Source of the DNA: a virus
Taxonomy: Duplodnaviria; Caudoviricetes
Reading direction: 5' to 3' (one strand)
IMG/VR virus record: IMGVR_UViG_3300014822_000022
Location: 1 to 61,851 of that record
Length of the DNA stretch: 61,851 bases
A model generated the notes under the pieces. The model searched no databases, was not told the DNA's origin, and saw only the letters and a program-made list of their open reading frames with translations. This document shows, piece after piece, positions 19 to 55,114 of this stretch (the first letter of the stretch is position 1; the number at the start of each line of letters is the position of its first letter). A program made the translations under genes and the position numbers.

Positions 19-354
19 GATGCAAAACTGCGGCGCCTTGCAGCCGCCGGCGAGCTCGATGGTCTCAGCAATGCGGCTGCGCTCACGAAAGCCGCTAAGG
101 CGGTGGTGGAGACCTTCGGAAGTCTAGCATCAAGCAAGGCCGCCGAGGCCAGCGAGAGCAAGCCCAAGCGGCCACGGCCGAAGGCAGAGACGAAAGCTGC
201 ACCGCCGACGCTCACCGACATTCCTGCCGCTGGCGACCAAGAAATCGCCCGCAGCAAATTCGCCGAGCTTGATAATCTCGAAGGCGAGGAACTTGAAGAG
301 GCGGTTGCCAGACTCACGCCTGCCGAGCGGCGAGCGTATGAGGAACTGCAATGA
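1..354 (+). CDS. C-terminal part of probable capsid scaffolding protein (continues from 61228 across the junction)
   Basis: In frame with the ORF starting at 61228; charged and helical; lies between portal and capsid genes. Confidence 0.75.
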   Translation, partial: DMFDALDAKLRRLAAAGELDGLSNAAALTKAAKAVVETFGSLASSKAAEASESKPKRPRPKAETKAAPPTLTDIPAAGDQEIARSKFAELDNLEGEELEEAVARLTPAERRAYEELQ

Positions 355-539
355 AGATTATCGACATCAAGGTCGGAGAATCTGTCTCAATCGAGTTTGG
401 TGAACAGCGGGTGGATATTATTCCGCAACACAAGTCTGGTTCTCGTATGCGTATCGGCATTGAGGCCGACAAGAGTGTGCGCATTGGGAATACAAAATCG
501 CTACTTGAGAGCGGTCTTGTTGACACATCTACGACGTAG
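351..539 (+). CDS. CsrA/RsmA-like small protein
   Basis: 62 aa; KVGESVSI...KSGSRMRIGIEADKSVRI aligns by eye with CsrA RVGETLMI...KGNQVRIGVNAPKEVSV; start overlaps upstream stop (ATGA). Confidence 0.6.
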   Translation: MKIIDIKVGESVSIEFGEQRVDIIPQHKSGSRMRIGIEADKSVRIGNTKSLLESGLVDTSTT

Positions 540-24700: not shown

Positions 24701-27479
24701 GTTCGATGTCCAGCGCAGTCGCGGCGACTTCGCAGCCTATAGCGACAAAGAGCTTGACGCTTATGCAAGCGCAATGAAGAAAATTGGCAGGAAGGCCGAG
24801 AAGAAGCCACTCAAGGAGAGGCTGTCAGAAGTTGCCGGCGCGCGCGCTCGTCTTGCATGGACCGTCACTTTTGTTGACCGATTCAACGCCATGTACGACT
24901 ACGAGCTCCGCAGATTTATGGAAGAGAATCCGGGCAAGGGGCGCAAGGACTTTGCGATGCATGACTCAAAGGCATACATGTCCATGCGCATGGCCGTACA
25001 TTCCGGCAAGGTTGCCGAAGCATGGCTTACCATTGGTCAAATGAAATGGAAGCGGGATAGCAATGGAGAGATTACGGTTCCAGAGCTCATCGAGGGCAAG
25101 CGCGCGCTGTTCGACATCATTGGAGACCTGCACGATGACGCGGATTCGTTCCTGCACTGGATGGTTGGCATGCGCGCCAAGAGGCTCATGGAAGAAGGGC
25201 GCGAAGGGCAGGTTGACGAGGAAGGGAATGCGCTCAATCTGTTCACTCCCGAAGAGATAGATGCGCTCATCAATCAGGCGCCGCCGGAGAAACTGGACAA
25301 GTTCAAGGCCGTTCTTGACGAGCTCAATGAGTATGACCGGAACAAGCTGCAATTCCTCAAGGATGCCGGCGGCCTGTCCGAGAGTGGCATGGAGGCCATG
25401 CTGAAATATGGCGACTACATCCCATTCTATCGCATCATCGAGGATGCGATTGCAGGCCCCGGCAAAACGAAGCCGCTACAGCAGGGCAACGGGATATATC
25501 GCCTGCACGGCGGCCGACTGAACATCGGCTCGCTGATTGAAAACATGTACATGAACACCAACGTCATCATTGACGCTGCGTTTAAGGCAAAGGCATTCAA
25601 GCGAGCCGACGAAGCATTCAGGCTGCCGGACGGGAAATATGATACGTCCGTTTGGGAGCCGCGCGGTCTGGTGATAAAGAAGGGGCTTGCAACCGCCGGC
25701 TCGGCTTTGGATTCCATGCAGAACCATGATGTGCTCGCCGAGATGGCGCTGCGCGAGGATTTCGACATGGAGGCCATACCCAAGACGGCCCGAAACGAAC
25801 TGCTTGAGGTCATGGCTGCGATGGTCCCAAGCGACAGCACGACCATTTCGTTCATCAAGGACGGCAAGAGGGTGTATCGCCGGGTGAATGACCCGCTGAT
25901 TCTCCGCGCTTTCAACGGTCTGTCCCACAAGAAATCCAAGGCACCGGAATGGGCCAAGGCGCCCAAGCAGTTGCTGACCAGACTGGTGACAGTTGACCCT
26001 GCCTTCGGCATCGCCAACTCCATACGAGATGCGCTTTCGGTTGCGGCAACAACTGACGTGAAGCTCAATGTCGGCGATGTTCTGAAAGGCTGGTCGGCAT
26101 CGTTCAAGAACGATGAGCGCTATAAGCGAGCTTGGATTTCAGGCGCGCTGCCGACCGTTGGGTATCTGCACGGCGCCGATGAGGCGCAGCTACAGGCCCA
26201 CATTCACCGACTCAAGGAGTTGAAGGTGGGCGACGGCAGGGTTGGCGCCACTCTGGCGTCGCTGACCGAGATGGTTGACAGGTGGAGTGGACACTTCGAG
26301 AACGCAGCGCGCTTGGGCGTGTTCACCTCAGCCATTGAATCCGGCAAATACACCGATGAGCAGGCCGCATTCCTTGCGTTGGATACGCTGGATTTCGGCA
26401 TGCATGGTGACGGCGACGCGGCGCTGTTCCTGATAGATACGGTTCCGTTTATGAATGCCCGCATTCAGGGACTGTACCGCCTTGGAAGGGGGTTCATCGA
26501 ACATCCCGACGCCGTGCTCAAGGTTGGCGGCGCCATCATGGCCGCAAGCATGCTGCTTGCGCTGGTGAACGGCGACGATGACAGATACAAGCGCCTGCCC
26601 GAGTACGACAAGGACACCTACTGGCACATCTGGATTGGCGGATACCAACTGCGCATACCCAAGCCGTTCGAGGTTGGGGCCATCACGGGGACGCTTCCTG
26701 AGCGGCTGATTGAGTTGATTCGCACAGGCGACTTGGACCTGTTTGCCGACCGTGTGTTTTTCGCGCTCGAAAACACCTTCAACCTCAACCCTGTGCCACA
26801 GGTGGCCAAGCCCATCATTGAAGAGTTCGCCAACAAGAGCTTCTTCACCGGGCGTCCGATTGTTCCGATTGGCCAGCAGCATGTTGAGAGGGAACTGCAA
26901 TTCAGCCCATGGACATCGCCGACCATGCGCGAACTTGCACAAGTGACCAAGTACCTTCCCGAGAACGCCATCACGGAGCCCTTGCAGTCTCCGAAGCGCA
27001 TGGAGCACATGTTCAAGGGGTACTTTGGCACAGTGGGCGGATATGTGCTCAGCGGTCTAGATTATGCCGTCAGGCTTGGTTTTGGCTATCCAGAGCGGCC
27101 GGAGGGCAAGATTGAGGATGTCATGGTACTTGGGCGGTTTGTTCGCTCCGAGTTTTCGAGGAACACGAAATACACCGCCGCTCTGTACGACATGTACGAC
27201 GCCATTACGGAGGTGAATTCAACGCTCAAGCAGTACCGGCACGATGGCGATTTTGAGGCCGCAAGGGCTTACCGAGAGAAGAAGGCTGAGATTATCAAGG
27301 CGAGCCCACGGATTCGCGCCGCAATGAGTCAGATTCGACGGCTGAACAGGCAAATGAAGCGCCTGTATGAGAACCCGGGCCGTCTATCCTCGGAAGAGCT
27401 TGGGCGCCGGGTTGATGACATCAACAACAAAATCAATAGCATAGCAGAGAAGGTGTATCCTTTGCACACACACTTCTAA
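12795..27479 (+). CDS. Giant DarB-like polyvalent virion protein: LPD1/metallopeptidase, DarA-C-like, degenerate N6-MTase, SNF2 helicase, second HExxH peptidase, two ParB/Srx-like domains, LPD38-like C-terminus
   Basis: 4894 aa; HEHSH (~16755), AHEVGTGKT (~20142), DEAH (~20628), SGTP, QRNGRAYRQGN, HESFH (~23406), DGGHR and DGAHR, LRIPKPFEVG. Confidence 0.85.
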   Translation: MADFENGLKPKDQFVPTKRVNPLLSLIEGERQQTSPEAAPTVNPLASIKPTPAPAEPQSPASGLAGGVADFSKGLAGGVFETGGMIGDTATFASRGLAGRKDAEAGKGLADASRRTAEKLGLVQSEEGKKAAEDPFSVRGAAFSAGQMVAPSIAMPLAFAAAGRKIAGIKGAAIGGLLGFGASIATFFGNQAKSTYDKVFEAKKRAGLDDEAAHDEAIAAGVKTGAIEAAGETAADYLTFKLFRLLPSGVKENVVRAATKAIRNPWEMAKDIAINTSGQVGTEIAQAAGQQAVEANAGAEEAPSWDSVKGVIVPAAIMSIFMFGGGEMVGSMRRRDASKALSDPETPVEKRREAMFAVANEVAKHDPALAERFIQDANTSINQGKPVIPDEDEVYAEEKRMVARQEARIRARASKDSRKRVASIPDEKLYDALVSENDRLEKAMQSGDEHGIAMASEAIALINGRLDKAEAAGKPISQSVDDLSRDIGAQVDEALSSPDVLQRQSQENESAEGSAEPTAQRSKDIENKDVEASSKAEPEVQNDSEDTTGLSGEKPQREESVQAKPDESGSNQEAKAGGNVQEGVEEGGTSPAAQEESKVKSAEEKTVDDLADLLGINDKTRKKGRKPEKNKTAKPETPEQPEQPEAAKPETPEQPEAAKPETPEQPETPEVAKPETPGVAIDAEALAEKEAEYKRLADIRYRLKTKELDTKSALKEAGVKRRAHLDQRISELADEISALKRGEGAQEKKTQEPEPSKRAKPHGDEAAKRAEKARESGGDAIDVLTSLLEGDTGGKTGPHHPPKKVTRPKKEEKKTTTSSETSDEKKSPEQLAAEVGESKKKLRKRFEEHLATLDKEVRKAFDIDKPRALSVKNKTLTSTDGKYKLVWRVRKNPEAEISPDNEQREDGYVELVTKEKKKKQSKAELEQSRRLKLIGMGADVRRYMGRKVRIEGSPEVVVKQLVKMTLRKSNWIIKKTDSNTFGQERYLTMLRDEMLPTWQEWYGFTLGASRRRWGTKPLDAIIQKASTPEGMDEVRNSAADYMSVLTQLEGAVSNAGNVYEARKALIEALFFRPEQLEDEDAAKKAERLHEWLEDPEASIYETSAISSTDIATGLGKKVLEYVDGPRKYNDAKQYVAWWLRKKTADDYAKSEHAEYKKKKNFATTKRVKLSDIHRSEDLPDYWLMDGMDKLDATPPEEDIEIAKKLAGLGESSAKDGEYGALLAKFKGSELERAIVKKFGLAGIGYGQYVNREEQALFLRHLYNSLHDYAEMNGIPTEAVGQGGKLRIAYGARGHGRFAAHYEPGTRIINLTKDKGDGSLLHEHSHSLENGHGLTGPAADKAMSDMYTILKTSFNDEKMDEVLEEILAGKRYTPRRRGRKEQLLNAAKSFLKGEWKDADYGVISETDFFANAKSLGEYWSRAAELWARANEARGAIKLGDSSPFLVGSHANMNSPDGWREENGYIGSPYPTGEEAEAFSQAIDYLWHNVETVENEDGSVSLVINKYESLIDAKMDQLQERADKLLEKLSEMYDALNAPKSKDGLHWYRFTFGSRGKNMQPNGYYAFDDAENTVGYARILEQNELDMFGLEGITFEATDKTVYLKEVFDEGNGEGALEKVSPEHGGAHGEERDSESGSGNGDRQGGPGEGEAGVGGSGKSESAGKGGGNGVDTARSEQHVSDAAGGRGGAETAEKSRPAGRDYRLTGSDTTLHADKDAEFKASIAAVRALMALDGRKATAEEQADIAPYSGFYNTVNDYYFRYADSVQRAMLESTLPQEMFEELRRQQNGWQFIPAEMLLAIYDSLETMGFEGGKVAHINTGAGRSAGMMPEGMRKNSSNVIIERTTLDRMVAKALYQKSKVMDKGLAETNLARGFFDGVIINAIGGEEYAKDTAFNKTGMSTWTYAFSKALSATAEGGVVVGITDSGMLGDDTAKSTLARSGELIAGIRLSPQKGFDDGFHRFDILFFKATKNPTGTYLTDKRDYFEEHPEMVIGSPVPHSLIIERRHGETPSDAARKMPAGALKKEEVKFERPDPYENILDENEVFEGSFTEKDGKLYQRLEGKDVEVSVSGAKEKLIKDMIGLRGILRSYYRKAFSGEDSEAERKKLNKAYDAFVKKHGALSSPKNIAALDSDPDYPRLMAIENYDFIEDKAEKTEVFFKAPSLVNGTPDHVDSAKEALKWSLNDIGHIDFDYMRKLTGKTPQQLQLELAGEIYNSPETGWETKEEYLSGNIAYKLEVAKAAAEVQPDVFGINVKALELAMPTPLRPEEIKAKLGASWIPDDIVNDFISYIAPFSSISVRGNRITGMWKLGSRYASSKSAEKRIIRDEKQSTVATAEWGTSYKNGDFFSLLLTTLNGGVARVPKDPAGTRAVQVAQERIKAEFETWAMADEERAKKLADIYNKTFNSYVEPEYSAEHLTFHGMSRFIELRKHQKRAVWRSVVDDNVYFAHEVGTGKTYTMIASAMENKRLGKVKKPVIAGLNANIDIIRRDIFRLYPTARVDFIFVPTDTQGIQKAIRKIQASNADIIVMNHGSLSRLSVSGTYKVSMLMQEKARLEDALGAERFGGSDDIRNSITRAIKNLEEQIEEAKNEAFGNPLSFEDTGIDMVLIDEAHEFRKLSGKSALESRGVKGIDMKGPESSTRVFEQTQYLADNGGKVVFASGTPIVNSVTELHSISRYLQPDRLRALNIYNFDQWASTFGNIGTTIEYRPEGGGYEEIVMFKGFDNVPEMVGIVREVMDTVTSEQMVAEAKKAGEKISIPGVKGGEPKVVVVPQTPELEKYTKETLIPMVRTIKESPKEAAARGFNMLKVTTDSRKAALDTRLVDSSLIPSGETKASMAAKNALKEWEASKDIKGTQLFFLDTSIPAKDRFNVYQEIKDKLMEGGVPEKEIAFIHDYGNERKRMRLFHDVNKGSVRFLIGSTEKMGTGTNVQERVVAVHHIDIRFNIAAYIQRNGRAYRQGNINSDVSLYVYVTEKSADVFMWDKVALKAKAFSALFTGDRNIRSTEDVSSTESMDAGEFTAIASGNPLIKERSELEREISSLKAEKRSFNLSIKSLKAKRAERLAFEEAYGKRKEAGEEELALWESIEAFSGKEDEERFKIGSKAITEYVDAAIKEFEKSEPKKGDSTELGYLSGEKGNVSLALHFNGESTVVTGSAFQGTSVGRLIANAKAKLTSALESLDSEKEENDRELKAIDEALKKTFPKEEELSAKEKRLAEVEASLAGEEDDGVLRSRALFNAPPADSEPMLFGGVSSFNKVKPTAAAGGTDYIISKDKLQELVDRHGDGYIYRVTLPEYISDGIDTPAYSHQYKSGDVNKTLSFTTNLENAIAYVADRSRMDGRPTGDYIIYRVRPESLGSKPLRLIVPTERGDTLTAHIHSVEPVNVADIVMSGTELANAADRVHNDYIGDEYDSIEQISAALAELGVEGVEAQGYAGIAGEHTVEGGQGEGREGFGRISPQDRPSVGPVRSRGSIRPSASSTEEALSEVVRIVGDAATPTAVDKLPGDTQGQFRVAERLIEIAKNIDDPKQIAWHESFHALQRLVFNSKQIAVLNKAFSTGKPLRRRIERLMREQGFHDVLKSGKDFNNEEAQAYAFQAYMSGNFAPRGIIRAMFAKLRRIVEAIGNAIRGRGLQTAEGIFERAGRGEYAKGFERLETDKNVIAHSRSKEKFPGDYGIETARFPKVAVPVSLLKELTLPGGKKAGQFPPKRKALEKSVAERGYDTNSIIDIIVGADGVAKVRDGGHRIALADAHGIEKLPARVTYYDGAEDVAGEFSPSNLVKGLYRSADDVHEELSRARASFGYEMRQALIEAFKRSHNYTEHKHPKEAIDAARDTFTERLVTSNGAPESMGIETASFTKVTVSTRHIAGLMGYRSGSLNLDGNKVQAMTRDMSLNGYDFDEPIEIGVNQNGEAFLVDGAHRLVAALRAGYSAIPANIRYFNGGEKQPGPFYPDDLAMRGSGADEFDVQRSRGDFAAYSDKELDAYASAMKKIGRKAEKKPLKERLSEVAGARARLAWTVTFVDRFNAMYDYELRRFMEENPGKGRKDFAMHDSKAYMSMRMAVHSGKVAEAWLTIGQMKWKRDSNGEITVPELIEGKRALFDIIGDLHDDADSFLHWMVGMRAKRLMEEGREGQVDEEGNALNLFTPEEIDALINQAPPEKLDKFKAVLDELNEYDRNKLQFLKDAGGLSESGMEAMLKYGDYIPFYRIIEDAIAGPGKTKPLQQGNGIYRLHGGRLNIGSLIENMYMNTNVIIDAAFKAKAFKRADEAFRLPDGKYDTSVWEPRGLVIKKGLATAGSALDSMQNHDVLAEMALREDFDMEAIPKTARNELLEVMAAMVPSDSTTISFIKDGKRVYRRVNDPLILRAFNGLSHKKSKAPEWAKAPKQLLTRLVTVDPAFGIANSIRDALSVAATTDVKLNVGDVLKGWSASFKNDERYKRAWISGALPTVGYLHGADEAQLQAHIHRLKELKVGDGRVGATLASLTEMVDRWSGHFENAARLGVFTSAIESGKYTDEQAAFLALDTLDFGMHGDGDAALFLIDTVPFMNARIQGLYRLGRGFIEHPDAVLKVGGAIMAASMLLALVNGDDDRYKRLPEYDKDTYWHIWIGGYQLRIPKPFEVGAITGTLPERLIELIRTGDLDLFADRVFFALENTFNLNPVPQVAKPIIEEFANKSFFTGRPIVPIGQQHVERELQFSPWTSPTMRELAQVTKYLPENAITEPLQSPKRMEHMFKGYFGTVGGYVLSGLDYAVRLGFGYPERPEGKIEDVMVLGRFVRSEFSRNTKYTAALYDMYDAITEVNSTLKQYRHDGDFEAARAYREKKAEIIKASPRIRAAMSQIRRLNRQMKRLYENPGRLSSEELGRRVDDINNKINSIAEKVYPLHTHF
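14691..14827 (+). repeat. Coding tandem repeat (AKPETPEQPE units) in giant protein
   Basis: gccaagcccgagaccccgg occurs four times with in-frame spacers. Confidence 0.9.
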
Positions 27480-28960: not shown

Positions 28961-29359
28961 ATGGCTATCTATCGGAAGGCCATTGCAACGCGCAATGCAA
29001 AACTGGACGCTCAGACAGCCCGATACAATGGCGGCACCCTGAACTGGTACACGGGCGCCATTCCGGCCACGCCGGATTCGCCCGCTACCGGCACCCTTCT
29101 GGCAACCAACTCTTGCGCCAACCCGGCCTTCTCTCCGGCGGCAAATGGTGTTGCGACTTACAATCCCGATACACCCAACACGCAGGTGGCAACCGGGAAC
29201 ATCGGCTACTGTCGGGTTCTGGATTCTGGCGGCGCCGTTGTCGCTGACTTGGATGTCACTCTGACAGGAGGTGGAGGCGCAATCGAGGTTGACAAGCTGG
29301 CTATCGCCGCCGGCGAGAATGTCACTGTCACCTCGTTCACGCTGACGGAGCCGATGTGA
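28961..29359 (+). CDS. Virion structural protein, paralog family copy 3
   Basis: YTGAIPATPDSPATGTLL...VTSFTLTEP. Confidence 0.65.
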   Translation: MAIYRKAIATRNAKLDAQTARYNGGTLNWYTGAIPATPDSPATGTLLATNSCANPAFSPAANGVATYNPDTPNTQVATGNIGYCRVLDSGGAVVADLDVTLTGGGGAIEVDKLAIAAGENVTVTSFTLTEPM

Positions 29360-30735
29360 TGCCTGCCGCCGAAAAGGCAGCGACCGCATTGAGCAACGGA
29401 AGGATTGACCTTGCCATCAAGAATGCGCGAAAAATACCGGATGTTGCAGAAAGAAACGCTGCGCTAGCCGCCTCATACAGAGAGCTTGGCGATGACGAAA
29501 AGGCTTTCAGATATTTGAGGAAGGCTTACCTTGCCAGCAAGGATTGCGCCATCGCCGTTCTGTATGCCAGAGGGTTGATTGAACGAGGAAGAGCCAAGCA
29601 GGCCGTCAAGATTCTTGCTGACCACCCAACGGTCGATGGGCGCATGGCGCTGGCCTCCGCCTATGTCTCTTTGTCCGAGATAGACAAGGCGTGTGATATA
29701 TACCGAGAGGCAATTAGAAGGTTCCCCGACTACCTTCCGGCATATCTTGCTCTGGCCCCGCTGATGAGGCATGACAAGAGCACTCCATGTCAACCTGATA
29801 AGCTCAAGGGGTTTCTCGAATCAGTGGAGGTGCCTGCCAGCAGACTTGACAACATACACTACTGCCTTGGCATAGTGTATGAGGACTTGGGTAAATACAG
29901 ACAGGCATTTAACCACTACTCCAAGGCGGCGGAAATGAGGCGCAAGCAGTTCCCTGAGTGCATTATACCTCAACATAAACAGCAGCTTGCCAAGGTGAAA
30001 TCTCACTTCACAAAGGAGCTTCTGGCCGAGGTGCCGCCGCAGCGCCAGCATTGCCCGCTGGTGTTTGTGTTCGGAATGCCGAGGTCGGGCACGACGCTGA
30101 CTGAGCAGATTCTTGTCGCGCACCCCGAGATTGAAACACTCGGTGAATCGCCAAATGTGATGGATGAAATCGAAGCCATCCGGCAGGGCGACTTCGACGC
30201 AGACGACCCCGACGCTGCGACACGGCTCTATGTCCAGCGGCGCATCGGTGAGCTTCGCTCACGCTTTATGGTGGATAAGATGTGCGGCAACTGGCAATAC
30301 CTTGGGTTGATGTATCAATTATTCCCTGCCGCTCGATTTGTGTACGTCAAACGCGACGCGCTCAACAACTGCTTTGCTACATGGTCAACCCTATTCGCAC
30401 GCGGCCACGCCTATTCCTACACCTTCGAGGAAATGGCCGCCGAGTACAAAATCCATGAGGAATACATGCGCCACTGGTTCAACGTGCTGCCTGCCGGAAC
30501 CATACACGAGGTGCGCTACGAAGAACTAGTGACGGACCGTCAGCACCAGACGCGACGCCTGCTAGACTACATTGGTGTGGAGTGGAACGATGCATGTATG
30601 GAGCCGCATAAAATCAAGCGAGATGTGAAAACAGCTTCGCTGGCACAGGTTGTGCGCCCCGTTTACACATCGAGCGTGGACCGCGCCGCGCGGTTTGGTT
30701 CCATGCTCGACCCGCTGCGGGAGGCGCTGGCATGA
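29356..30735 (+). CDS. TPR-containing PAPS-dependent sulfotransferase (Sulfotransfer_3/TPST-like)
   Basis: N-terminal TPR-like helices; 5'-PSB loop VFVFGMPRSGTTLTEQIL; DK, KRDALNNCFA, VRYEELV, VKTASLAQVVRPVY motifs. Confidence 0.9.
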   Translation: MMPAAEKAATALSNGRIDLAIKNARKIPDVAERNAALAASYRELGDDEKAFRYLRKAYLASKDCAIAVLYARGLIERGRAKQAVKILADHPTVDGRMALASAYVSLSEIDKACDIYREAIRRFPDYLPAYLALAPLMRHDKSTPCQPDKLKGFLESVEVPASRLDNIHYCLGIVYEDLGKYRQAFNHYSKAAEMRRKQFPECIIPQHKQQLAKVKSHFTKELLAEVPPQRQHCPLVFVFGMPRSGTTLTEQILVAHPEIETLGESPNVMDEIEAIRQGDFDADDPDAATRLYVQRRIGELRSRFMVDKMCGNWQYLGLMYQLFPAARFVYVKRDALNNCFATWSTLFARGHAYSYTFEEMAAEYKIHEEYMRHWFNVLPAGTIHEVRYEELVTDRQHQTRRLLDYIGVEWNDACMEPHKIKRDVKTASLAQVVRPVYTSSVDRAARFGSMLDPLREALA

Positions 30736-39746: not shown

Positions 39747-40214
39747 TTAGAACGGAATATCATCATCATACAGCCCGTCATCTGCTGGCGGCTCACTGCT
39801 GAAAGGGTCGCGTTGGTCTGAGGTTCCGGCTCTATTGGCGCCCCTCTCCGGTGTGGGTGAGGCGCGGCCGCCCCGATTGCCTTCCTCACCCTTGCCGCTC
39901 AGCATCTTCATGTTCGAAGCCTTGATTTCGGTTGTGTACCTATCATTGCCATCGCGGTCCACCCACTTCCGGGTTTCAATCTTCCCTTCGATATACACAC
40001 GAGCTCCTTTTTGCAGGTACTCGTTTGCAATCTCCGCAAGGCGACCCCAAAGAACGACCCTGTGCCATTCGACACGCTCCTGCATCTCGCCGTTCCTGTC
40101 CTTGAATCTTTCGGAGGTTGCCACGCGCAGGTTGCAGACACAGGTTCCATCCTGAATAAATCTGGTTTCAGGGTCCGAACCGAGGTTTCCAATCAGAATC
40201 GCCTTGTTAATCAT
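39747..40214 (-). CDS. ssb: Single-stranded DNA-binding protein
   Basis: [34 protein letters not shown]-terminal DDDIPF. Confidence 0.95.
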
Positions 40215-40443
40215 AATTACCTCGCAGCACATATTGTGCGAAACTGCATTTTTCACCGAATTTATTGACGGCCTGCTTCCTCTTCGTTTCAATGCTGAAA
40301 CCAGCTTTTCTCAACTTATGGATGACGGACGACAGTCTGTAAACACCAAGCTCACTCCACGCCTCAACCGGGTCAACACTGCCGACAGCCATGAGATGCA
40401 TGACTACCCTTTCTTCCTGTTTCGACAAGCCTTTTGTCTTCAA
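40207..40443 (-). CDS. Small winged-helix DNA-binding protein
   Basis: [27 protein letters not shown] pattern. Confidence 0.7.
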
Positions 40444-40454
40444 AGATTTTCTCC

Positions 40455-41576
40455 TTACGACACGACGATTGTGCGCTTCTTTGTCAGTTCAACTCCCGGG
40501 ATTTCCTTACCGGTAGCAACGGCCTTTTTGACTGCCGTTTCGTCCACAACGACCTTCTTATACTCAGCCGGCACAGCGTCAATATCAAGCACTTTTACCG
40601 ATACATTCTGCCTCACAGCCATCTTTCCTGTCGCACCCATGGCCACGAGCTCGCCCGTATCCTCAAGATACCCATCGACTTTCGATTTGAGAGCCGTGAG
40701 GCAGTCGCCCAACGGTTTCGAGAAAACCTTGAACTTATCGTTTATCTCCTTGATGTGCTTGTTGTGCGGTTCGACAATCTCCTTGCGCTTCGACTCCAGT
40801 TTCTTTTGAAGCTCCGCGATTGCCTTGCCAATATCGGCTGCCTTCGCGGCGCCACCTCCGTCCGAGACCTCAATCTCAGATGCTATCGCAATAAGGCCAT
40901 TCACAGCCTCCACGATGGTGGCGGGCACATCCTGAATCTCAATGGCCGGCGCGGCCTCTGTCGGGGCTGATTCCGCCACCATCCTTTCCACCTCAGATAG
41001 GCCATCTGGCCACTCGCGCGCTTCAACGCGGCGCCAGAACTCATCCAGTTTCTCTACCATTCTGGCGATGTACTTGTTGTCGCGCTTGATGACCTGCTCA
41101 TGGTACGGTTCATCGGCGCCGGGCTGATACGATACGAAGTACCACTCCTTGAAGCCGAACACATACATATTCTGCTGCATTTGATGGTAGTACGCCTGTT
41201 CGACAGTGCCCTTGCAGTGGTTGGCATGAACATCTTCGGATGTCGGACACTTGATTTCCACGCCGACCTTCTCCTTTCTGTTCACTCCATCGGCCGATGC
41301 GCGGATGTGGCGCCTCTGCCCGCACATAGGCACCACTTCAACCATGTGCTTTGCTTCGAATATCTCGCGCGCCACCTCTTCAAGCTCGCTTCCGCGACGC
41401 ATGGCTGCATTCTGGAAATCCTTGCGCTTCTTCTGACCTGTCTTCTCAAGCCACAAGTCGCGCGAGAAGTTCATGGCGCGCAGACCTTCCGAGGCACCAA
41501 TTCCTCCATTTCTCCAATCGTGCCATTCCGGCGAGCCCTGTTCGAGGTTTACAACTCTAAGTCTTGGGACTCCCAT
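40455..41576 (-). CDS. YqaJ/lambda-type exonuclease with C-terminal Gp157-like coiled coil
   Basis: QGSPEWHDWR, IGASE, ASADG, EIKCP, QMQQNM; C-terminal VPAEY...KAVATGKEIPGV. Confidence 0.85.
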   Translation of the reverse strand: MGVPRLRVVNLEQGSPEWHDWRNGGIGASEGLRAMNFSRDLWLEKTGQKKRKDFQNAAMRRGSELEEVAREIFEAKHMVEVVPMCGQRRHIRASADGVNRKEKVGVEIKCPTSEDVHANHCKGTVEQAYYHQMQQNMYVFGFKEWYFVSYQPGADEPYHEQVIKRDNKYIARMVEKLDEFWRRVEAREWPDGLSEVERMVAESAPTEAAPAIEIQDVPATIVEAVNGLIAIASEIEVSDGGGAAKAADIGKAIAELQKKLESKRKEIVEPHNKHIKEINDKFKVFSKPLGDCLTALKSKVDGYLEDTGELVAMGATGKMAVRQNVSVKVLDIDAVPAEYKKVVVDETAVKKAVATGKEIPGVELTKKRTIVVS

Positions 41577-41798
41577 TCCAATTCCTCCGATTCGTCCAAC
41601 TTTGGAATCATGTTGCTTTCAAGCGCATCTTCGACGCCGTACTGAATCTGGTCGCACACCTCTTCAACATCGGCGTATGTGAGATGCTTGTACCCCGACT
41701 CCTGCGGTCCGTTATTCCGAATCTCCAGACTCTGACGAATCCACAGCCTTAGTTCCGCCGCTATCGACTCCTTGATTTCCACTATTATTGCCATTCCC
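41549..41798 (-). CDS. Hypothetical protein overlapping recT 3' end (start approximate)
   Basis: ORF fills the gap between recT and exonuclease. Confidence 0.4.
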
Positions 41799-42680
41799 AT
41801 CCTCCACAATTTCAGCATCCTCTGCGGAATGCTTCTTGATGAACTCGATACACTCGTCGATGCTCATACCCTTGATTGAATGCACACCGATTGACTTCGC
41901 GTATGCCATCATGGGCTTGCCGGCGCGCGCAGCCTCTTCTTTCAGGATTCTGCCGACCTCCCGCTGCTTCTCAAGGAGTTCATCCTTGGCGGTACGCTCG
42001 GAGGTATCGCCGATGGCGGCATCCACCAGACCTTCGGTATCGTCGAGAACATGAACCGCCTGACTCAGGCGCTGAGTCTTCGGCCAATACTTGCTCGCGC
42101 GCTTAACAACGGTCTTCCTCGCCATCTCCGCATAATCCGTGACCCAAGGCCCGGTTGATGCCTTGGAGCGCTTGCGCACGGCGTCGATTTCATCCTTCGA
42201 CATGATTTCATGCATGGTAGTACCATCGGCAAGCGTGGCAACGCAATAGACGCCGAGGATGTCATCGTCGCTCTTGTTCTTGGAGAACGGGTTTGGCTTA
42301 TGCACGATGCGTTCTTCCGTACCCTGAATCACCTCGAAGAAGTCATCTCGATATACAACGCGAGAGACGACTGACTTCACGCTTCCTGAATCTGTTGCGA
42401 TTTTGATGAGGCCCATGTAGCTGATGTCCAGACATGCCCGACCACCACGAGGGACAAGATAGGCCAGTTTCATGGCCGGGTTCAGGGTGATGTCGATGAG
42501 CGCTACATTCTCGATGGCGCTGCGAAGGGAGGGAATCATGCCGGGCTTTTGCAGGGCTGGATTCGCCTCGACAATCTGCGCCGCAAAGCGCGCCTCTCGC
42601 TCAAAATCAACGCTCGCTCGCTTGAATGCCGGAGCGGCCTGCTTGATGGCGTGGATGTAGGGTTGGATGGCGTTTGACAT
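41712..42680 (-). CDS. recT: RecT-family single-strand annealing recombinase
   Basis: LNPAMKLAYLVPR, ISYMGL, PWVTDYAEMARKTVVKRASKYWP; RBS GGAGG. Confidence 0.9.
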   Translation of the reverse strand: MSNAIQPYIHAIKQAAPAFKRASVDFEREARFAAQIVEANPALQKPGMIPSLRSAIENVALIDITLNPAMKLAYLVPRGGRACLDISYMGLIKIATDSGSVKSVVSRVVYRDDFFEVIQGTEERIVHKPNPFSKNKSDDDILGVYCVATLADGTTMHEIMSKDEIDAVRKRSKASTGPWVTDYAEMARKTVVKRASKYWPKTQRLSQAVHVLDDTEGLVDAAIGDTSERTAKDELLEKQREVGRILKEEAARAGKPMMAYAKSIGVHSIKGMSIDECIEFIKKHSAEDAEIVEDGNGNNSGNQGVDSGGTKAVDSSESGDSE

Positions 42681-42704
42681 TGTGACCTCCTGCCGAGAAC
42701 GGCC

Positions 42705-42733
42705 AAACTACCCTAATGAGAATCAGTTGTCAA
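42705..42733 (-). promoter_or_regulatory. Sigma70-type promoter for recombination operon
   Basis: TTGACA-17-TAGTTT on - strand just upstream of recT. Confidence 0.65.
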
Positions 42734-42775
42734 CATGCAATGGTGGTCACAACGATTGACGAAAGAATGTTGCGC

Positions 42776-42803
42776 TTGACATAGGGGAGTCGGTGAATAT
42801 ATT
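42776..42803 (+). promoter_or_regulatory. Sigma70-type promoter for replication operon
   Basis: TTGACA-16-TATATT, divergent from recT promoter. Confidence 0.6.
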
Positions 42804-42911
42804 TCGGGAGTAGCGGCTATATCGCGGGTCGCTCCCGCGATGAAGCAACCTCCCCCTCGGTGGCGCGCCGCTCCTTTTTCTTCTATCTCAGGAGGGGGGT
42901 GGCGAGGGGAT

Positions 42912-43115
42912 ATGAGCAGCAAAGAGGCAATCGAATCAATAGCTCCCGGGAGCGCTAGAGTCACAACCTCAAACGGCGATGTTTACGAGCACGCATCCAT
43001 AATCTCCGTCGAGAGATACACAATCCAAGCAGTTGTTGATGGCTCTCCGATTGTGTTCTTCAAGGCCGGAATTGTATCCATCGAGGATGAACGTCAACAC
43101 AGGACAGCCAACTAA
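42912..43115 (+). CDS. Hfq/Sm-like small protein
   Basis: 67 aa; VTTSNG...IISVERYTI...VFFKAGIVSI matches by eye Hfq IYLVNG...IESFDQFVI...MVYKHAISTV. Confidence 0.55.
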   Translation: MSSKEAIESIAPGSARVTTSNGDVYEHASIISVERYTIQAVVDGSPIVFFKAGIVSIEDERQHRTAN

Positions 43116-43946
43116 ATGGAAAACGGCTATGTGCTGTTGTCCCGTTCGCTATGCGAGCACTGGATGATTGCCTCCGACCATGATGCTCTGGCGGTCTTTA
43201 TCTATATCCTACTCAACGCGCGGCATAAAGAAGGAACGGCAGTCATTGACGGGTCCATTGAGACCCTTCGGCCGGGTGAGCTTATCGGTGGTCGCAAGCG
43301 CATCGCTCAGGCCACAGGGCTCACCGAAAAGCAGGTGAGAAGAATTTTGAGGTTGCTGGAAAAGGGCGGAATTACGGCCAGCAGAACGGCCAATGGAAGG
43401 GCCAATGGTGTGGGGATAATTTCCCTTGTAAATTGGGAACTTTACCAAACCGAGGTGAATTATAGGGCCAACAAAGGGGCCAGCAGACGGGCGCACGAAG
43501 GGCCAACGAAGGGCCAACGAAGGGCCACAAACAAGAATGGTAATAAGAGAGATATATTAGATGTTGGAGATAGTGATAGGTATGGAGATAATGGAAAGGT
43601 AGATACCGATTCGGGCGAATCGGTTTATCTGACTCGCAAGCGTCGCAAGCTGACAGGGAAGCGGCTTGAGACGTTCAACATGTTTTGGGATGCGTTCGAC
43701 TACAAGGTTGGCAAAGCGGATGCGGCCGATGCTTGGCTGGATATTCCGAACATGACCATGGCTCTGGTCCACAAGATAATCGCTGCGGCGAGAGTCGAGG
43801 CAGCCCGTCGCGTCAACGTGGAGAATCCCAAGATGGCTCAGGGATGGTTGTCGGCTCGCCGATGGGAGGATGAGTTGCTGTCTGGAAGCCCGCCTGCCGC
43901 AACCCATAGGGGGTACTCCGAAGGGAAAAAGAAGGAGGCGTTGTGA
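43116..43946 (+). CDS. Phage replication initiator protein
   Basis: GYVLLSR N-terminus, wHTH (IAQATGLTEKQVRRIL), ISLVNWELYQ, C-terminal FNMFWDAF...GWLSARRWEDE; precedes DnaB. Confidence 0.8.
   Translation: MENGYVLLSRSLCEHWMIASDHDALAVFIYILLNARHKEGTAVIDGSIETLRPGELIGGRKRIAQATGLTEKQVRRILRLLEKGGITASRTANGRANGVGIISLVNWELYQTEVNYRANKGASRRAHEGPTKGQRRATNKNGNKRDILDVGDSDRYGDNGKVDTDSGESVYLTRKRRKLTGKRLETFNMFWDAFDYKVGKADAADAWLDIPNMTMALVHKIIAAARVEAARRVNVENPKMAQGWLSARRWEDELLSGSPPAATHRGYSEGKKKEAL
43375..43605 (+). repeat. Iteron-like repeats plus AT/purine-rich tract: probable replication origin
   Basis: ACGAAGGGCCA x3 tandem at 43495-43527, further GGGCCAA/GGCCAGCAGA copies upstream; lambda-O-like location inside initiator gene. 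Confidence 0.65.
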
Positions 43947-45172
43947 GTAAAATTGCTGAGCGCGCGTTCATTGCGAATGCCATTGTGTTCGGAGGGCATG
44001 ATGAATTTGCCCTGACACCGGACCATTTCGAGGACAGGCTGTGCTCCGAGGTCTGGCGCGAGATAATGGACGCCAGCGAAATAAGCACACTCGAACTGAG
44101 CAAGAAGTTCGGCGAGGCGCCACTTTCAAAGCTGATTGAGTGCGCCCAAGCGCACAGCAAGATGCCCGAGCTTTACAAAGACATTGTTGATGACCACGAG
44201 AGGCGCCAGTTTATCCGTGAAATCGAACTTGCGAAGGAGATGGTGTCGAAAGGAGCCCCGTTAGAGGACGTACAATCGACGCTGAGCGGTTTTTCACCGT
44301 CGAGTAGTGGTGTGGGTGCCATGACACTCGCAGAAGGGCTTAGAGAGGCTTACAGCGAGATTGAAGCCATCAGTCAGGGCGGGAAGGACTGCCGGTTGTA
44401 CATACCGACAGGAATCAAGAGCTTTGATGATGTGTTCTTCGGGCTTGAGCGCGGCGCCTACACCGTGATTGCCGGCCGGCCATCGCAAGGAAAGACGGCG
44501 CTGGCTACAAAGATTGCGACGGAGATTGCGCTGTCGGAATATAACGTGTTGATGTTGACCCTTGAGATGAGCAGGCAATCCTTGGTGTACAGGATTCTGT
44601 CATCCTATGCTGGCCTTGACCTCCAGTTGCTGCGAAAGGGCGCGGTGAAATCCCCAACAGCGTGGTCGAATCTTGCCAACGGCGTTCAGAAACTGGTTGG
44701 CGCAAACCTGTGGATTGATGATGAGCCGTTGATGACAGCAGGAAAGATTGCAGCCAAGGCCAGAAGGCACAAGCGGATTCATGGTCTGGACGTTCTGGTT
44801 ATTGACTACATTGGACTTGTCAATGGCGAGGGAATGGGCGAGAAGCGGCACGAGCAGGTGTCGGAAATATCGCGTCGAATGGCAAGTCTGAGCAAGGAAC
44901 TGGATTGCGCGGTGGTAGTGCTTTGCCAGCTTGGGCGCGATGTCGAGAAGCGTGTCGATAAGCGTCCGCTGATGTCTGACCTGAGAGATTCCGGCTCGAT
45001 TGAGCAGGATGCAGATGTCATCATGTTCGTGTACCGGGATGAATACTATCACCCGAAGCCGGAGAACAGGGGCATCGCGGAGGTTATCGTGTCGAAGAAT
45101 CGCAATGGCCCCGTTCACACCGTGAAGCTCCATTTCAGACATGACACAGCAACATTCGAGTCATTCAAGTAG
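43943..45172 (+). CDS. dnaB: Replicative DNA helicase
   Basis: AGRPSQGKT, LEMS, IDYIGL, QLGR, DLRDSGSIEQDAD, KNRNGP. Confidence 0.95.
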   Translation: MSKIAERAFIANAIVFGGHDEFALTPDHFEDRLCSEVWREIMDASEISTLELSKKFGEAPLSKLIECAQAHSKMPELYKDIVDDHERRQFIREIELAKEMVSKGAPLEDVQSTLSGFSPSSSGVGAMTLAEGLREAYSEIEAISQGGKDCRLYIPTGIKSFDDVFFGLERGAYTVIAGRPSQGKTALATKIATEIALSEYNVLMLTLEMSRQSLVYRILSSYAGLDLQLLRKGAVKSPTAWSNLANGVQKLVGANLWIDDEPLMTAGKIAAKARRHKRIHGLDVLVIDYIGLVNGEGMGEKRHEQVSEISRRMASLSKELDCAVVVLCQLGRDVEKRVDKRPLMSDLRDSGSIEQDADVIMFVYRDEYYHPKPENRGIAEVIVSKNRNGPVHTVKLHFRHDTATFESFK

Positions 45173-45723: not shown

Positions 45724-45891
45724 GGCCAACGGGATTCAACAGCGCCGGAACCTGTGAAGGTTGTGGCAAGTGGCGCTCGATTCGGGATGCCTACACCATA
45801 AGCAAGGACGGAAAGTGGTGGGGGAACGGGCTTAGTGATGCCTCTTTATGCAGGGAGTGTCATCGCAAGCGCAAGCAGAAAGGAGAAAAGG

Positions 45892-46230
45892 ATGAGGGAT
45901 AAGGAATACTTGAAGCCCAAGGACGGCCAGTTGTGCGCCTACCACTACCTTGGCGGTTGTATGGGCGATGTGGTTTTTCATCACATCCGCGTCAAAGGTC
46001 TTTGTGGGGTTGGGTTGAAGATGGAGGATGAGTTTACCATCCCCGTGTGTTGGCTGCATCACCGGGCCTGTGACGCCCGCACCATCCCGACGCATGACCA
46101 ACTGAAAGAGATGCTGTGGTTCTGGTTTGGAACGATTGCTGAGCGCGATGGTTTGGCGCCGGCACTGCAAGCGTTTGGCGATGCCTACGTGGCAATACTG
46201 AAAGGAGGCAACAATGCAGAATCCGTTTGA
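45892..46230 (+). CDS. DUF968/Ref-like HNH-type zinc protein
   Basis: C...C, HHIR, GVGLK...D.FTIPVCWLHH motif. Confidence 0.6.
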   Translation: MRDKEYLKPKDGQLCAYHYLGGCMGDVVFHHIRVKGLCGVGLKMEDEFTIPVCWLHHRACDARTIPTHDQLKEMLWFWFGTIAERDGLAPALQAFGDAYVAILKGGNNAESV

Positions 46231-46690
46231 TGTGGAGGGCTCAACAATCAATATCGAGATGATGAACCCCAATTTGGCATTCAAGAGCTTGAAGTCCGGT
46301 GACAGGTTCTTGTTGACCGTGGAGATTAAGAAGGAGGTGTGGGAGTTGTTGCAGGAGTGTCGAAGCAGGTCCGGTATGCTTCTGGATGCCGATGTGACCG
46401 TGGTTGCTGTGAACGCACAAGGAGCAGCGAAGCCGGATGAGAGGGTTGCGCCGAAGAGGCTCACGCCGGCGAACATTCTGCATCAGACATTCCTCAAACT
46501 GCCCGAGTTTTGGGAGTTCGTGAGTGAGGTGACTGGCGAACTGATTGAAAACGATGTGGAGTGCAAGGCCGCCCTGAAACGCTTTCTGGATGTTGGTTCG
46601 CTGTCAGATGTTGACGAGCAGGCCATGACAAAACTCATGGCAACCTTCAAGCGATTCTGCGAGAATCACGGGTATGTCAGCGACGAGTAA
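46214..46690 (+). CDS. Hypothetical protein
   Basis: 158 aa; RBS GGAGG; coupled to neighbours. Confidence 0.6.
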   Translation: MQNPFDVEGSTINIEMMNPNLAFKSLKSGDRFLLTVEIKKEVWELLQECRSRSGMLLDADVTVVAVNAQGAAKPDERVAPKRLTPANILHQTFLKLPEFWEFVSEVTGELIENDVECKAALKRFLDVGSLSDVDEQAMTKLMATFKRFCENHGYVSDE

Positions 46691-47057
46691 ATACCGGAAC
46701 AGAAAGATTGAGGTCGATGGTTTAACATTCGATTCGGAAGGTGAGGCTCAGCGCTGGTTTGAGCTCAAGTATCTGGAGAGAGCCGGCGCAATATCCGACT
46801 TACGCCGTCAGGTTCCGTTCGAGCTCCAGTCTGGATTCAGGTACAACGGGGTTTCCTACAGGCCGATTCGGTGGGTTGTCGATTTCGCCTATAACAAGGA
46901 TGGCATGCCCTGTGTGGAGGACTTCAAGCAGCCCAAGACCGCAAGTGAGGCAACATTCAGATTGAAACTGAGGATGTTCCTGTACCAATACGGGGCCACC
47001 TACAATGTGTTCATCAGCCAGAAGTCGCGTGGACGGATAACTGTGGCGCGCGTTTGA
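46674..47057 (+). CDS. DUF1064-family PD-(D/E)xK nuclease
   Basis: KYRNRK...DGLTFDSEGEA, RQVPFEL, VDFAY, VEDFK. Confidence 0.85.
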   Translation: MSATSKYRNRKIEVDGLTFDSEGEAQRWFELKYLERAGAISDLRRQVPFELQSGFRYNGVSYRPIRWVVDFAYNKDGMPCVEDFKQPKTASEATFRLKLRMFLYQYGATYNVFISQKSRGRITVARV

Positions 47058-47082
47058 CTTTATATTCACTTTCGATTACAGT
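47054..47082 (+). promoter_or_regulatory. Putative sigma70 promoter
   Basis: TTGACT-17-TACAGT upstream of tandem-HTH gene. Confidence 0.5.
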
Positions 47083-47104
47083 TCGTTGCTCAGAGGAATA
47101 CTTG

Positions 47105-47506
47105 ATGGCTACTTCTATACCGATTTCTCAGGATGAAATGTCATCCATGCTGAAAGCCGCGCGCCTGTCCAAGCAGGAATTGGCAGAACGGCTTGGCCAC
47201 TGGTCGCACGCCGCGTCGAGATGGAAAGACTCGGTGCCAACCTATGTGGTCGAGTACCTTCGCATTCGTGGCTGCATATTCGGCATTGTGGAGCATATCG
47301 AGTATGGCACGGTGCCGAAGTCGTTTGACTTCATTGGCGCGCTCAAGGAAATGAAGCTCAAAAAAGCAGAACTGGCCCGAATCCTTGGCGTATCCAAGCA
47401 TTCTGTGACACGTTGGGGCAATGAGCCGCCGCAGTATGCCCTTGAATATGTGTACTGTCGGTGGTTGATGGAGAGGTGTATCAATGGATACGAAAGAGCA
47501 GAATAA
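47105..47506 (+). CDS. Tandem XRE/Cro-like HTH regulator
   Basis: Two copies of L.K.ELA..LG.....s.W....P.Y..EY. Confidence 0.7.
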   Translation: MATSIPISQDEMSSMLKAARLSKQELAERLGHWSHAASRWKDSVPTYVVEYLRIRGCIFGIVEHIEYGTVPKSFDFIGALKEMKLKKAELARILGVSKHSVTRWGNEPPQYALEYVYCRWLMERCINGYERAE

Positions 47507-55038: not shown

Positions 55039-55114
55039 GGCGGGCGGAAGGCTGGTGGTCTAACGGAGACCCATAATCTCCAAGAGGCCGGTTCGATTCC
55101 GGCGCCCGCAACCA
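55039..55114 (+). tRNA. Atypical tRNA with CAU anticodon (Met/fMet-like)
   Basis: Acceptor GCGGGC/GCCCGC with G1.A72 mismatch, anticodon arm GGAGA-CCCATAA-TCTCC, T arm GCCGG-TTCGATT-CCGGC, encoded ACCA. Confidence 0.8.

Follow-up and report, generated by a model that had tools for sequence, protein, structure and literature searches.

A small open reading frame (ORF) at positions 42912-43115 of the virus record IMGVR_UViG_3300014822_000022 encodes a product of 67 amino acids (aa) that is predicted to adopt the Hfq-type Sm fold, composed of a short helix at the N-terminus and five strands, the last of which is preceded by a 3-10 turn. Self-association of the protein is also predicted, by way of the edge contact between strand 4 and strand 5′ from which Sm rings are built. 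The ORF represents a real early gene of a roughly 62-kb podovirus-like phage and directly precedes the gene of a DnaD-like replication initiator; judged by sequence comparison, its product is not a canonical Hfq and appears to be a sequence orphan. The window, i.e., the whole stretch of DNA analysed, corresponds to the complete IMG/VR virus record of 61,851 bases, which is estimated to be 98% complete. The finding rests on this one metagenomic genome and on predictions only.

42912..43115, plus strand: 67-aa ORF, predicted Hfq-like Sm-fold orphan gene (ORF, codon usage, ESM Atlas, AlphaFold2, Foldseek/VIA against the PDB, self-association model)

The 67-aa ORF as an Early Phage Gene

The record is that of a podovirus-like phage, in which the portal is of the P22 type, the adaptor of the SU10 type and the major capsid protein of the Phage_capsid_3 family. 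Portal relatives with 41-43% identity were found in Pseudomonas phage Itty13, Erwinia phages PEp14 and Pavtok, Burkholderia phage JC1 and Ralstonia phages, and Gervaise likewise belongs to the portal relatives. The ORF starts with ATG 42912 and ends with TAA 43113-43115, exactly as given in a preliminary description of this DNA made from its letters alone, and the Sm1-like and Sm2-like stretches quoted there are both present in the translation. Using a codon-usage model trained on 16 long genes of the phage genome, the frame obtained a score of 0.294 bits per codon, which places it at the 38th percentile among true 67-codon windows; wrong-frame windows attain this value in only 0.1% of cases, and each of the other five frames has a negative score. 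A purine-rich ribosome-binding region precedes ATG 42912. A longer reading of 91 aa from ATG 42840 was rejected, as it has no Shine-Dalgarno sequence or other ribosome-binding site and would start inside a leader hairpin. No RNA runs containing the stretch were listed; the only run found to contain it (X1) is a DNA run and may be the source sample.

The possibility has to be considered that no functional protein is made, the frame being open by chance or encoding a leader peptide that delivers ribosomes to the initiator start. No search returned a homologue, and a stop-start junction would let any upstream ORF drive translation of the initiator. However, the codon usage is typical of the genes of this genome, and three predictors returned a confident, compact and known fold from the single sequence, which would be unusual for a random frame. 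We regard this explanation as very improbable.

Predicted Fold

The ESM Atlas model of the protein (predicted local distance difference test (pLDDT) 0.69, predicted template modelling score (pTM) 0.54) matched Hfq clusters of PF17209 with template modelling (TM) scores of 0.82/0.76 and 0.82/0.77, an Hfq_1 cluster with 0.76/0.73 and a DUF2642/YuzF cluster with 0.78/0.66, and the feature search of the same resource returned an Hfq cluster at 0.90. AlphaFold2, applied to the single sequence without alignment, yielded a best model with a mean pLDDT of 81.4 and a pTM of 0.68, the pLDDT values of the five models being 81.4, 81.3, 67.5, 50.7 and 39.5. The predicted elements, a helix at residues 3-8, strands at 13-19, 24-33, 37-42, 45-50 and 54-59 and a 3-10 turn at 51-53, follow one another in the order of an Sm protein, and the model thus contains the N-terminal helix and the subsequent strongly bent five-stranded antiparallel sheet that characterize the Hfq fold.

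In fold searches against the PDB with Foldseek and VIA, Hfq came first. Among the Foldseek matches listed, Hfq from nine organisms accounted for 26 of 27 rows, with M. jannaschii Hfq at the top (E 1.3e-3, root mean square deviation 0.7 Å over 45 columns, 29% identity). Against BFVD, 50 rows were listed with E values from 7.1e-3, including 56-86-aa proteins of crAss-like, Mycobacterium, Streptomyces and archaeal viruses with weak E values. The assignment of an Sm/Hfq-like fold in the preliminary description was therefore upheld at the level of prediction: three structure predictors give the Sm topology, the fold searches return Hfq first, and self-association is predicted through the Sm ring interface.

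Predicted Self-Association

Complexes were modelled with four copies of the 67-aa protein in three runs alongside three controls. The mark used for scoring had been calibrated on two copies, where it was reached by 21 of 30 proteins solved as one-chain pairs and by none of the 23 proteins solved as single chains. The four-copy score was 0.44 (runs 0.44, 0.51 and 0.21), compared to 0.00 for the best of the three controls; the runs showed at least 94% contact agreement, and the partner pLDDT was at least 78. The contacts with the lowest error were formed by residues 51-59 together with helix residues 3, 6 and 7 of one copy and residues 47-50 of the next, so that strand 5 and the helix would lie against strand 4′ of the neighbour. 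A contact between strand 4 and strand 5′ is described as the interface assembling Sm and Hfq rings (10.1101/140376). According to these models, the protein may self-associate in the manner of ring-forming Sm proteins.

Comparison with Canonical Hfq

The residues of Hfq have their roles in the proximal pocket, on the distal face and on the rim. For a comparison at this level an alignment of 12 Hfq sequences was used, in which E. coli and three further enterobacteria are represented along with five copies from plasmids and three from phage-collection records; the search with E. coli Hfq had yielded 88-100% identity among the 120 matches listed, which is of little use for a profile, and the eight plasmid and phage hfq genes were added instead. 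Hhalign placed residues 29-59 of the 67-aa protein onto Hfq 35-64 (P 0.011 for one comparison, probability 3.7%). The Sm register proposed in the preliminary description was thus recovered, at a low level of statistical support.

Ten columns of the Hfq alignment are invariant (Q8, G29, G34, D40, Y55, K56, A58, I59, S60 and T61), and seven of them are spanned by hhalign. Of these seven, two (K, I) show identity, four a conservative exchange (D>E, Y>F, A>G, T>S) and one a difference (S>V). The individual correspondences are as follows, with the residue of the 67-aa protein given first.

E34: Hfq D40, conservative
Y36: Hfq F42, aromatic kept
F50: Hfq Y55, conservative
K51: Hfq K56, identical
A52: Hfq H57, changed
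G53: Hfq A58, conservative
I54: Hfq I59, identical
V55: Hfq S60, changed
S56: Hfq T61, conservative

Anchoring the two proteins manually on a shared Asn-Gly keeps G29 and leaves Q8 and G34 without a counterpart. In this manual register Ser, Ile and Pro face R16, R17 and R19 of Hfq; the rim arginines of Hfq are named in PMC3753642. Neither a match to an Hfq sequence profile, nor the Sm2 motif ([YF]-K-H-A-I-S-T with the invariant columns), nor a basic rim or surface was found. Further differences from Hfq are an N-terminal helix that is shorter (6 residues in the model) and the location of the gene, which is phage-encoded at the head of a replication operon. Conversely, the predicted topology and the size are the same as those of Hfq (PF17209/PF21979), especially of the short M. 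jannaschii Hfq (PDB 2qtx, 4x9c, 5dy9), the Sm1-like and Sm2-like stretches are in register, and the predicted subunit contact is likewise strand 4 / strand 5′.

The preliminary description had gone further and suggested that, with this gene and the CsrA-like gene, the phage may carry mimics of the two major post-transcriptional regulators of bacteria, through which replication and capsid synthesis would be controlled at the level of RNA. As a functional Hfq mimic, the 67-aa protein might chaperone the pairing of small RNAs with mRNAs or poison host Hfq through mixed rings. Such a function would agree with Hfq being the best structural match throughout, with the conserved aromatic and Lys counterparts of Hfq F42 and K56, with a predicted interface that is the Sm ring interface and with a CsrA-like gene in the genome, which shows that the phage carries at least one RNA-regulator look-alike. 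On the sequence level, however, across the genome no match to the Hfq, Hfq_1 or LSM profiles was obtained at E ≤ 10, BLASTP against E. coli Hfq gave no match, only Lys and Ile of Sm2 are kept among the covered invariant columns, Ala replaces His57, and the protein carries a negative net charge and no basic rim. In addition, phages seldom carry a true hfq gene: of 50,697 phage records, 7 were matched in a tblastn search with E. coli Hfq, and two of the seven bear bacterial organism names. The description of the protein as a mimic of host Hfq is not supported, and we consider Hfq-like activity of this kind improbable.

Searches for Sequence Relatives

The 67-aa protein matched no family in Pfam (hmmscan, E ≤ 1) and none in PHROGs, and in a word-indexed search of 5.8 billion proteins it was matched only by itself. 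HMMER against 1.84 billion representatives with no length limit gave five matches at E ≤ 1e-3, one of which was the protein itself. The remaining matches, four long proteins (723-2382 aa) built of repeats and aligned in 4-12 stretches each, were discarded as low-complexity or repeat artefacts; one of them consists of tandem repeats of ~23 residues sharing the word NGDVYE with the 67-aa protein, and we take it to be of the MORN type. Both phmmer against the PDB and tblastn against the 50,697 phage records gave no match at E ≤ 10, and a pattern scan of IMG/VR returned 28 stretches with no relative among them.

Searches closer to the phage gave the same picture. Among 4,939 ORFs of 80 loci carrying relatives of its DnaB or initiator, phmmer found only the protein itself (next best E 5), the best E value among the ORFs of four metagenome loci was 1.3, and a six-frame search of four genomes related in the structural genes and one related in the replication module detected the ORF in none of the five. 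Profiles likewise failed to place the protein. The six-frame genome search with PF17209 (Hfq), PF21979 (Hfq_1) and PF01423 (LSM) had no match at E ≤ 10, whereas control genomes were matched, and no match to the ROF profile PF07073 was obtained in the phage genome at E ≤ 10, though the control search finds the E. coli gene. The 67-aa protein is thus, as far as these searches reach, a sequence orphan.

Organization of the Early Operon

The genes and sites around the 67-aa ORF are listed below.

39747-40292, minus strand: SSB (7.8e-38)
40455-41576, minus strand: YqaJ exonuclease (YqaJ 5.8e-19)
41712..42680, minus strand: RecT recombinase, divergent, first gene of the recT / YqaJ-exonuclease / SSB arm, bounding the control region 42681-42911 (PF03837 6.3e-34)
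42776..42803, plus strand: sigma-70-like promoter candidate of the rightward early (replication) operon (TTGACA-16-TATATT, 11/12 matches)
42808..42911, plus strand: presumed 5′ leader with a hairpin at 42816-42846 (inverted repeat I5), a GC hairpin and T-run at 42858-42872 (terminator-like) and a pyrimidine tract facing the purine-rich ribosome-binding region
43116..43946, plus strand: DnaD-like replication initiator / helicase loader, 276 aa (phrog_2514 1.3e-19; phrog_270, replication initiation protein, 1.4e-13; weak winged helix-turn-helix matches in Pfam)
43943..45172, plus strand: DnaB-type replicative helicase (PF03796 DnaB_C 1.4e-85)

The TAA of the 67-aa ORF directly abuts ATG 43116 of the 276-aa initiator, and the coordinates confirm that it is the first gene of the operon with its stop next to the initiator start. 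The DnaB gene overlaps the initiator stop by 4 nucleotides (nt) and is therefore placed in the same operon. Upstream of the initiator only AGGA is present at a distance of 11 nt, whereas the other genes examined have AGGAGG-type sites 3-8 nt upstream. This unusual spacing suggests that translation of the initiator is coupled to that of the small ORF at the TAA-ATG junction.

The intergenic region in front of the ORF (42681-42911) comprises 231 nt. The TTGACA-16-TATATT element is the only sigma-70-like site in 42400-43400, and the 67-aa ORF is the first ORF after it; with one site found compared to 0.7 ± 0.7 in shuffles, the promoter is not beyond chance and represents a consensus match only. 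The fold of the leader has a minimum free energy (MFE) of -51.7 kcal/mol (z -1.45), and as 16 of 200 shuffles fold as well, its structure is not established. Within the MFE fold of 42808-42925, a C/U-rich tract at ~42849-42858 pairs with the purine-rich ribosome-binding region. The C/U tract and the GC hairpin are only a lead for translational or attenuation control, and no Rfam family was detected in the whole window.

A 16-nt inverted repeat with a 14/16 match connects 42671-42686 with 42960-42975, spanning the recT start codon and codons 17-21 of the 67-aa ORF, respectively, and the divergent recT and 67-aa mRNAs would both carry the same-sense word of this repeat. It is not beyond chance, since a 14/16 match is reached by 55 of 200 shuffles. 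The word TTGTGAC occurs nine times in the genome, with three of the sites grouped at 42680-42966, but this number is ordinary (9 versus 7.0 ± 2.5 in shuffles). Further downstream the rightward operon continues with a DUF1064 Holliday-junction-resolvase-like gene (45835-46230, plus strand, phrog_190 4.5e-32), an HNH endonuclease (46674-47057, plus strand, phrog_131 7.2e-12) and then a protein with a Cro/C1-type helix-turn-helix (HTH) (47054-47506).

Replication Modules of Related Phages

The initiator search yielded one IMG/VR locus and four metagenome loci, and the DnaB search yielded 241 relatives, of which 78 loci were kept. Initiator relatives are present in only 5 of the 79 non-self loci. 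A relative of the DnaB was found in none of the four portal-related phages Itty13, PEp14, JC1 and Gervaise, and because the portal relatives lack this DnaB, the replication module is mosaic and has been exchanged relative to the structural module. As a consequence of this mosaicism, a syntenic orthologue of the 67-aa ORF is not to be had.

The slot upstream of related DnaD-like initiators is occupied by a different small protein in each lineage. In the two loci with the closest initiator relatives, L008 (phmmer 1.8e-30) and L005 (2.1e-29), it holds a 56-57-aa ORF (L005:1606-1776 and L008:1603-1776), which gives weak ribbon-helix-helix (RHH) signals in L005 (SeqA_N 0.0039, RHH_1 0.026) and none in L008. 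In a third locus it encodes an SH3-like barrel (L096:1137-1331, AlphaFold2 pLDDT 72.5), and in a fourth a CI-type HTH gene (L098:1904-2191, 2.8e-4). By analogy this suggests that the slot usually holds a small operon regulator, which is a weak argument in mosaic genomes.

These observations bear on the idea that the 67-aa protein is a DNA-binding autoregulator of the early operon, i.e., a small beta-barrel taking the place of an RHH or HTH repressor, with operators in 42681-42911. The small upstream ORFs of L008 and L005, with RHH signals restricted to the latter, and the CI-type HTH gene of L098 are in line with it, as is the report that an RHH gene upstream of a plasmid replicase represses its co-transcript (PMC3543421). 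Nevertheless, the protein is acidic, its fold matches are RNA-binding Sm proteins rather than DNA-binding barrels, and no operator-like repeat stands out, the best inverted repeat being the one so often equalled in shuffles. Together with the limited weight of the slot analogy, this makes autoregulation through DNA binding decidedly unlikely in our view.

Relation to Known Sm-Like Proteins

Sm-like proteins of viruses and phages have already been described, and the 67-aa protein adds a sequence-orphan member to them. The gene 41 product of phage T4 is the replicative helicase. For T4 GoF an LSm-like fold is reported; GoF(D25Y) stabilises the gene 41 mRNA, and with mutant GoF, growth on restrictive rho alleles becomes possible (PMC12152347). 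If gene 41 is taken as the helicase, this link would parallel the linkage of the 67-aa gene to DnaB. The members of the corresponding LSm-like family of Tevenvirinae (GoF, MotB.1, Frd.2) resemble the 67-aa protein in being early, in having no sequence similarity to Hfq and being recognised only by their predicted fold (PMC12152347). They are two-domain proteins with barrels of ~82-91 aa and C-terminal domains, whereas the 67-aa protein is a bare Sm module; their nearest structural neighbours are SH3 barrels of the FeoA type rather than Hfq proteins; and no confident AlphaFold3 homo-oligomer is given for them, whereas the predicted self-association of the 67-aa protein passes the mark. PHROGs, which covers the T4 proteins, contains no family matching the 67-aa protein.

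A second parallel is found in archaea. On Thermococcus and methanococcal plasmids, Hfq-like genes are reported directly downstream of helicase genes, forming one transcription unit with the helicase on the Thermococcus plasmids (PMC3543421), and the Pyrobaculum spherical virus has an Hfq-like variant (PMC3543421, PMC3710371), ORF137 (PDB 2x4j). In most cases the plasmid proteins have a zinc finger at the N-terminus and a position downstream of the helicase, and they are detectable by sequence (PMC3543421), whereas the 67-aa protein is a single domain encoded upstream of the initiator and a sequence orphan. Other viral Sm-like proteins, such as a cyanophage pentamer cited in PMC3710371 and the BFVD entries, are short and have the Sm-like fold and no assigned function; none of them is a sequence relative of the 67-aa protein. 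Adephagia gp39 has also been called Hfq-like (PMC11373665). A phage Sm-like protein coupled to a DnaD-like initiator did not turn up in the literature search, which is not proof that none is in print.

Rof/YaeO (PF07073), an Sm-like inhibitor of Rho, represents a different use of the barrel. Accordingly, the 67-aa protein might be a protein-binding module, either plugging the site at which host Rho binds RNA and thereby allowing read-through of the long early operon, or serving as an accessory subunit of the co-translated initiator or of DnaB. The leader with its terminator-like hairpin, the probable translational coupling to the initiator and an acidic protein devoid of most RNA-contact residues of Hfq would all suit such a role. 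Rof itself acts as a monomer, whereas a ring-type self-association is predicted here; moreover, the ROF profile found no match in the phage genome although it detects the E. coli gene, and the Foldseek list is filled by Hfq and not by Rof. As a precedent, Rof has been characterized as an Sm-like Hfq homologue with an inhibitory action on Rho (PMC11018626, PMC11018607), and the growth of T4 GoF mutants on restrictive rho alleles points in the same direction (PMC12152347). On balance we judge protein binding to be a rather unlikely function of the 67-aa protein.

Proposed Function

The reading we favour, with slightly less than an even chance of being correct, is that the 67-aa protein is a small Sm ring binding single-stranded nucleic acid in the early replication and recombination programme, made in step with the initiator and differing from Hfq in its ligand code. 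Computed results cover only the gene and the predictions of fold and interface; all functional steps are inferred. The protein would form a small ring that binds single-stranded nucleic acid, and its target would be early transcripts of the replication and recombination genes or single-stranded DNA (ssDNA) at the replication module. Through termination and reinitiation at the TAA-ATG junction, the protein and the DnaD-like initiator would be produced at a constant ratio. The protein would work like an Sm/Hfq module without being a duplicate of host Hfq; since it is acidic and lacks most of the RNA-holding residues, its ligand and its specificity should differ from those of Hfq.

Several points weigh against this proposal. 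Two of the five AlphaFold2 models were poor (pLDDT 50.7 and 39.5), and neither in the PDB nor in BFVD did any Foldseek match fall below E 1e-3. As there are no homologues, there is no conservation or covariation to draw on, and both fold and oligomer are predicted from one sequence. The self-association score comes from a four-copy model compared with a two-copy calibration, and since Hfq rings are solved structures, the pass may reflect a likeness learned from them. The hhalign probability amounts to only 3.7%, and none of the Hfq, Hfq_1, LSM and ROF profiles matched. At the position of Hfq His57 the protein has Ala; extending the manual register from the shared Asn-Gly leaves Gln8, Tyr25 and three arginines of the rim (16, 17 and 19) unmatched; and with a pI of 5.14 (K2 R4, 6 basic residues, versus D3 E6, 9 acidic residues) the protein is acidic. 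Binding of nucleic acid is thus a proposal built on the predicted fold.

In a bolder version, the protein would be the first representative of a class of minimal, acidic rings with an Hfq fold that serve the replication modules of mobile elements. Stoichiometric with the DnaD-like initiator, it would act on replication and recombination transcripts or on origin ssDNA as an Sm chaperone that belongs to the phage and has a ligand code of its own. Archaeal plasmids, with an Hfq-like gene beside the helicase gene, and T4, with GoF and the gene 41 mRNA, would then have arrived at the same solution independently. We consider this extension speculative and unlikely to hold.

Other Genes of the Phage

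The CsrA-like companion gene mentioned in the preliminary description exists; its Pfam match remains below the cut-off.

351-539, plus strand: CsrA-like ORF, 62 aa, directly upstream of the major capsid gene (654-1760) (phrog_8397 1.7e-6; Pfam CsrA E 7.6e-5, 19.2 bits, cut-off 27)

A single ORF of 4,894 aa (12795-27479, plus strand) encodes a giant polyvalent protein with LPD38 (3.2e-41), LPD1, ResIII and Helicase_C domains, and a 459-aa protein (29356-30735, plus strand) combines TPR repeats with a sulfotransferase (PF13469, 1e-37), an unusual enzyme for a phage genome. The only tRNA gene is a tRNA-Met with anticodon CAT (55039-55114, plus strand). The Pfam scan, which covered 58 ORFs and not all of the small ones, revealed no integrase.

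Significance

Few RNA-binding regulators of phages are known, and Sm-like folds in phage proteins annotated as hypothetical are only now being recognised through structure prediction, as was the case for the GoF family of T4 in 2025, for Adephagia gp39 and for numerous BFVD entries without a name. The 67-aa protein represents an unusually clean case, i.e., a bare Sm module with Hfq proteins as nearest structural neighbours and a predicted ring-like self-association, whose gene is physically coupled to those of an initiator and a helicase. Should its ligand be RNA or ssDNA, a link would be established between Sm chaperones and the way in which phages control their replication genes, and a small and tractable protein would become available for study. 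Should its ligand instead be a protein, for instance Rho or the initiator, it would add another example of an Sm barrel reused as an inhibitor or adaptor.

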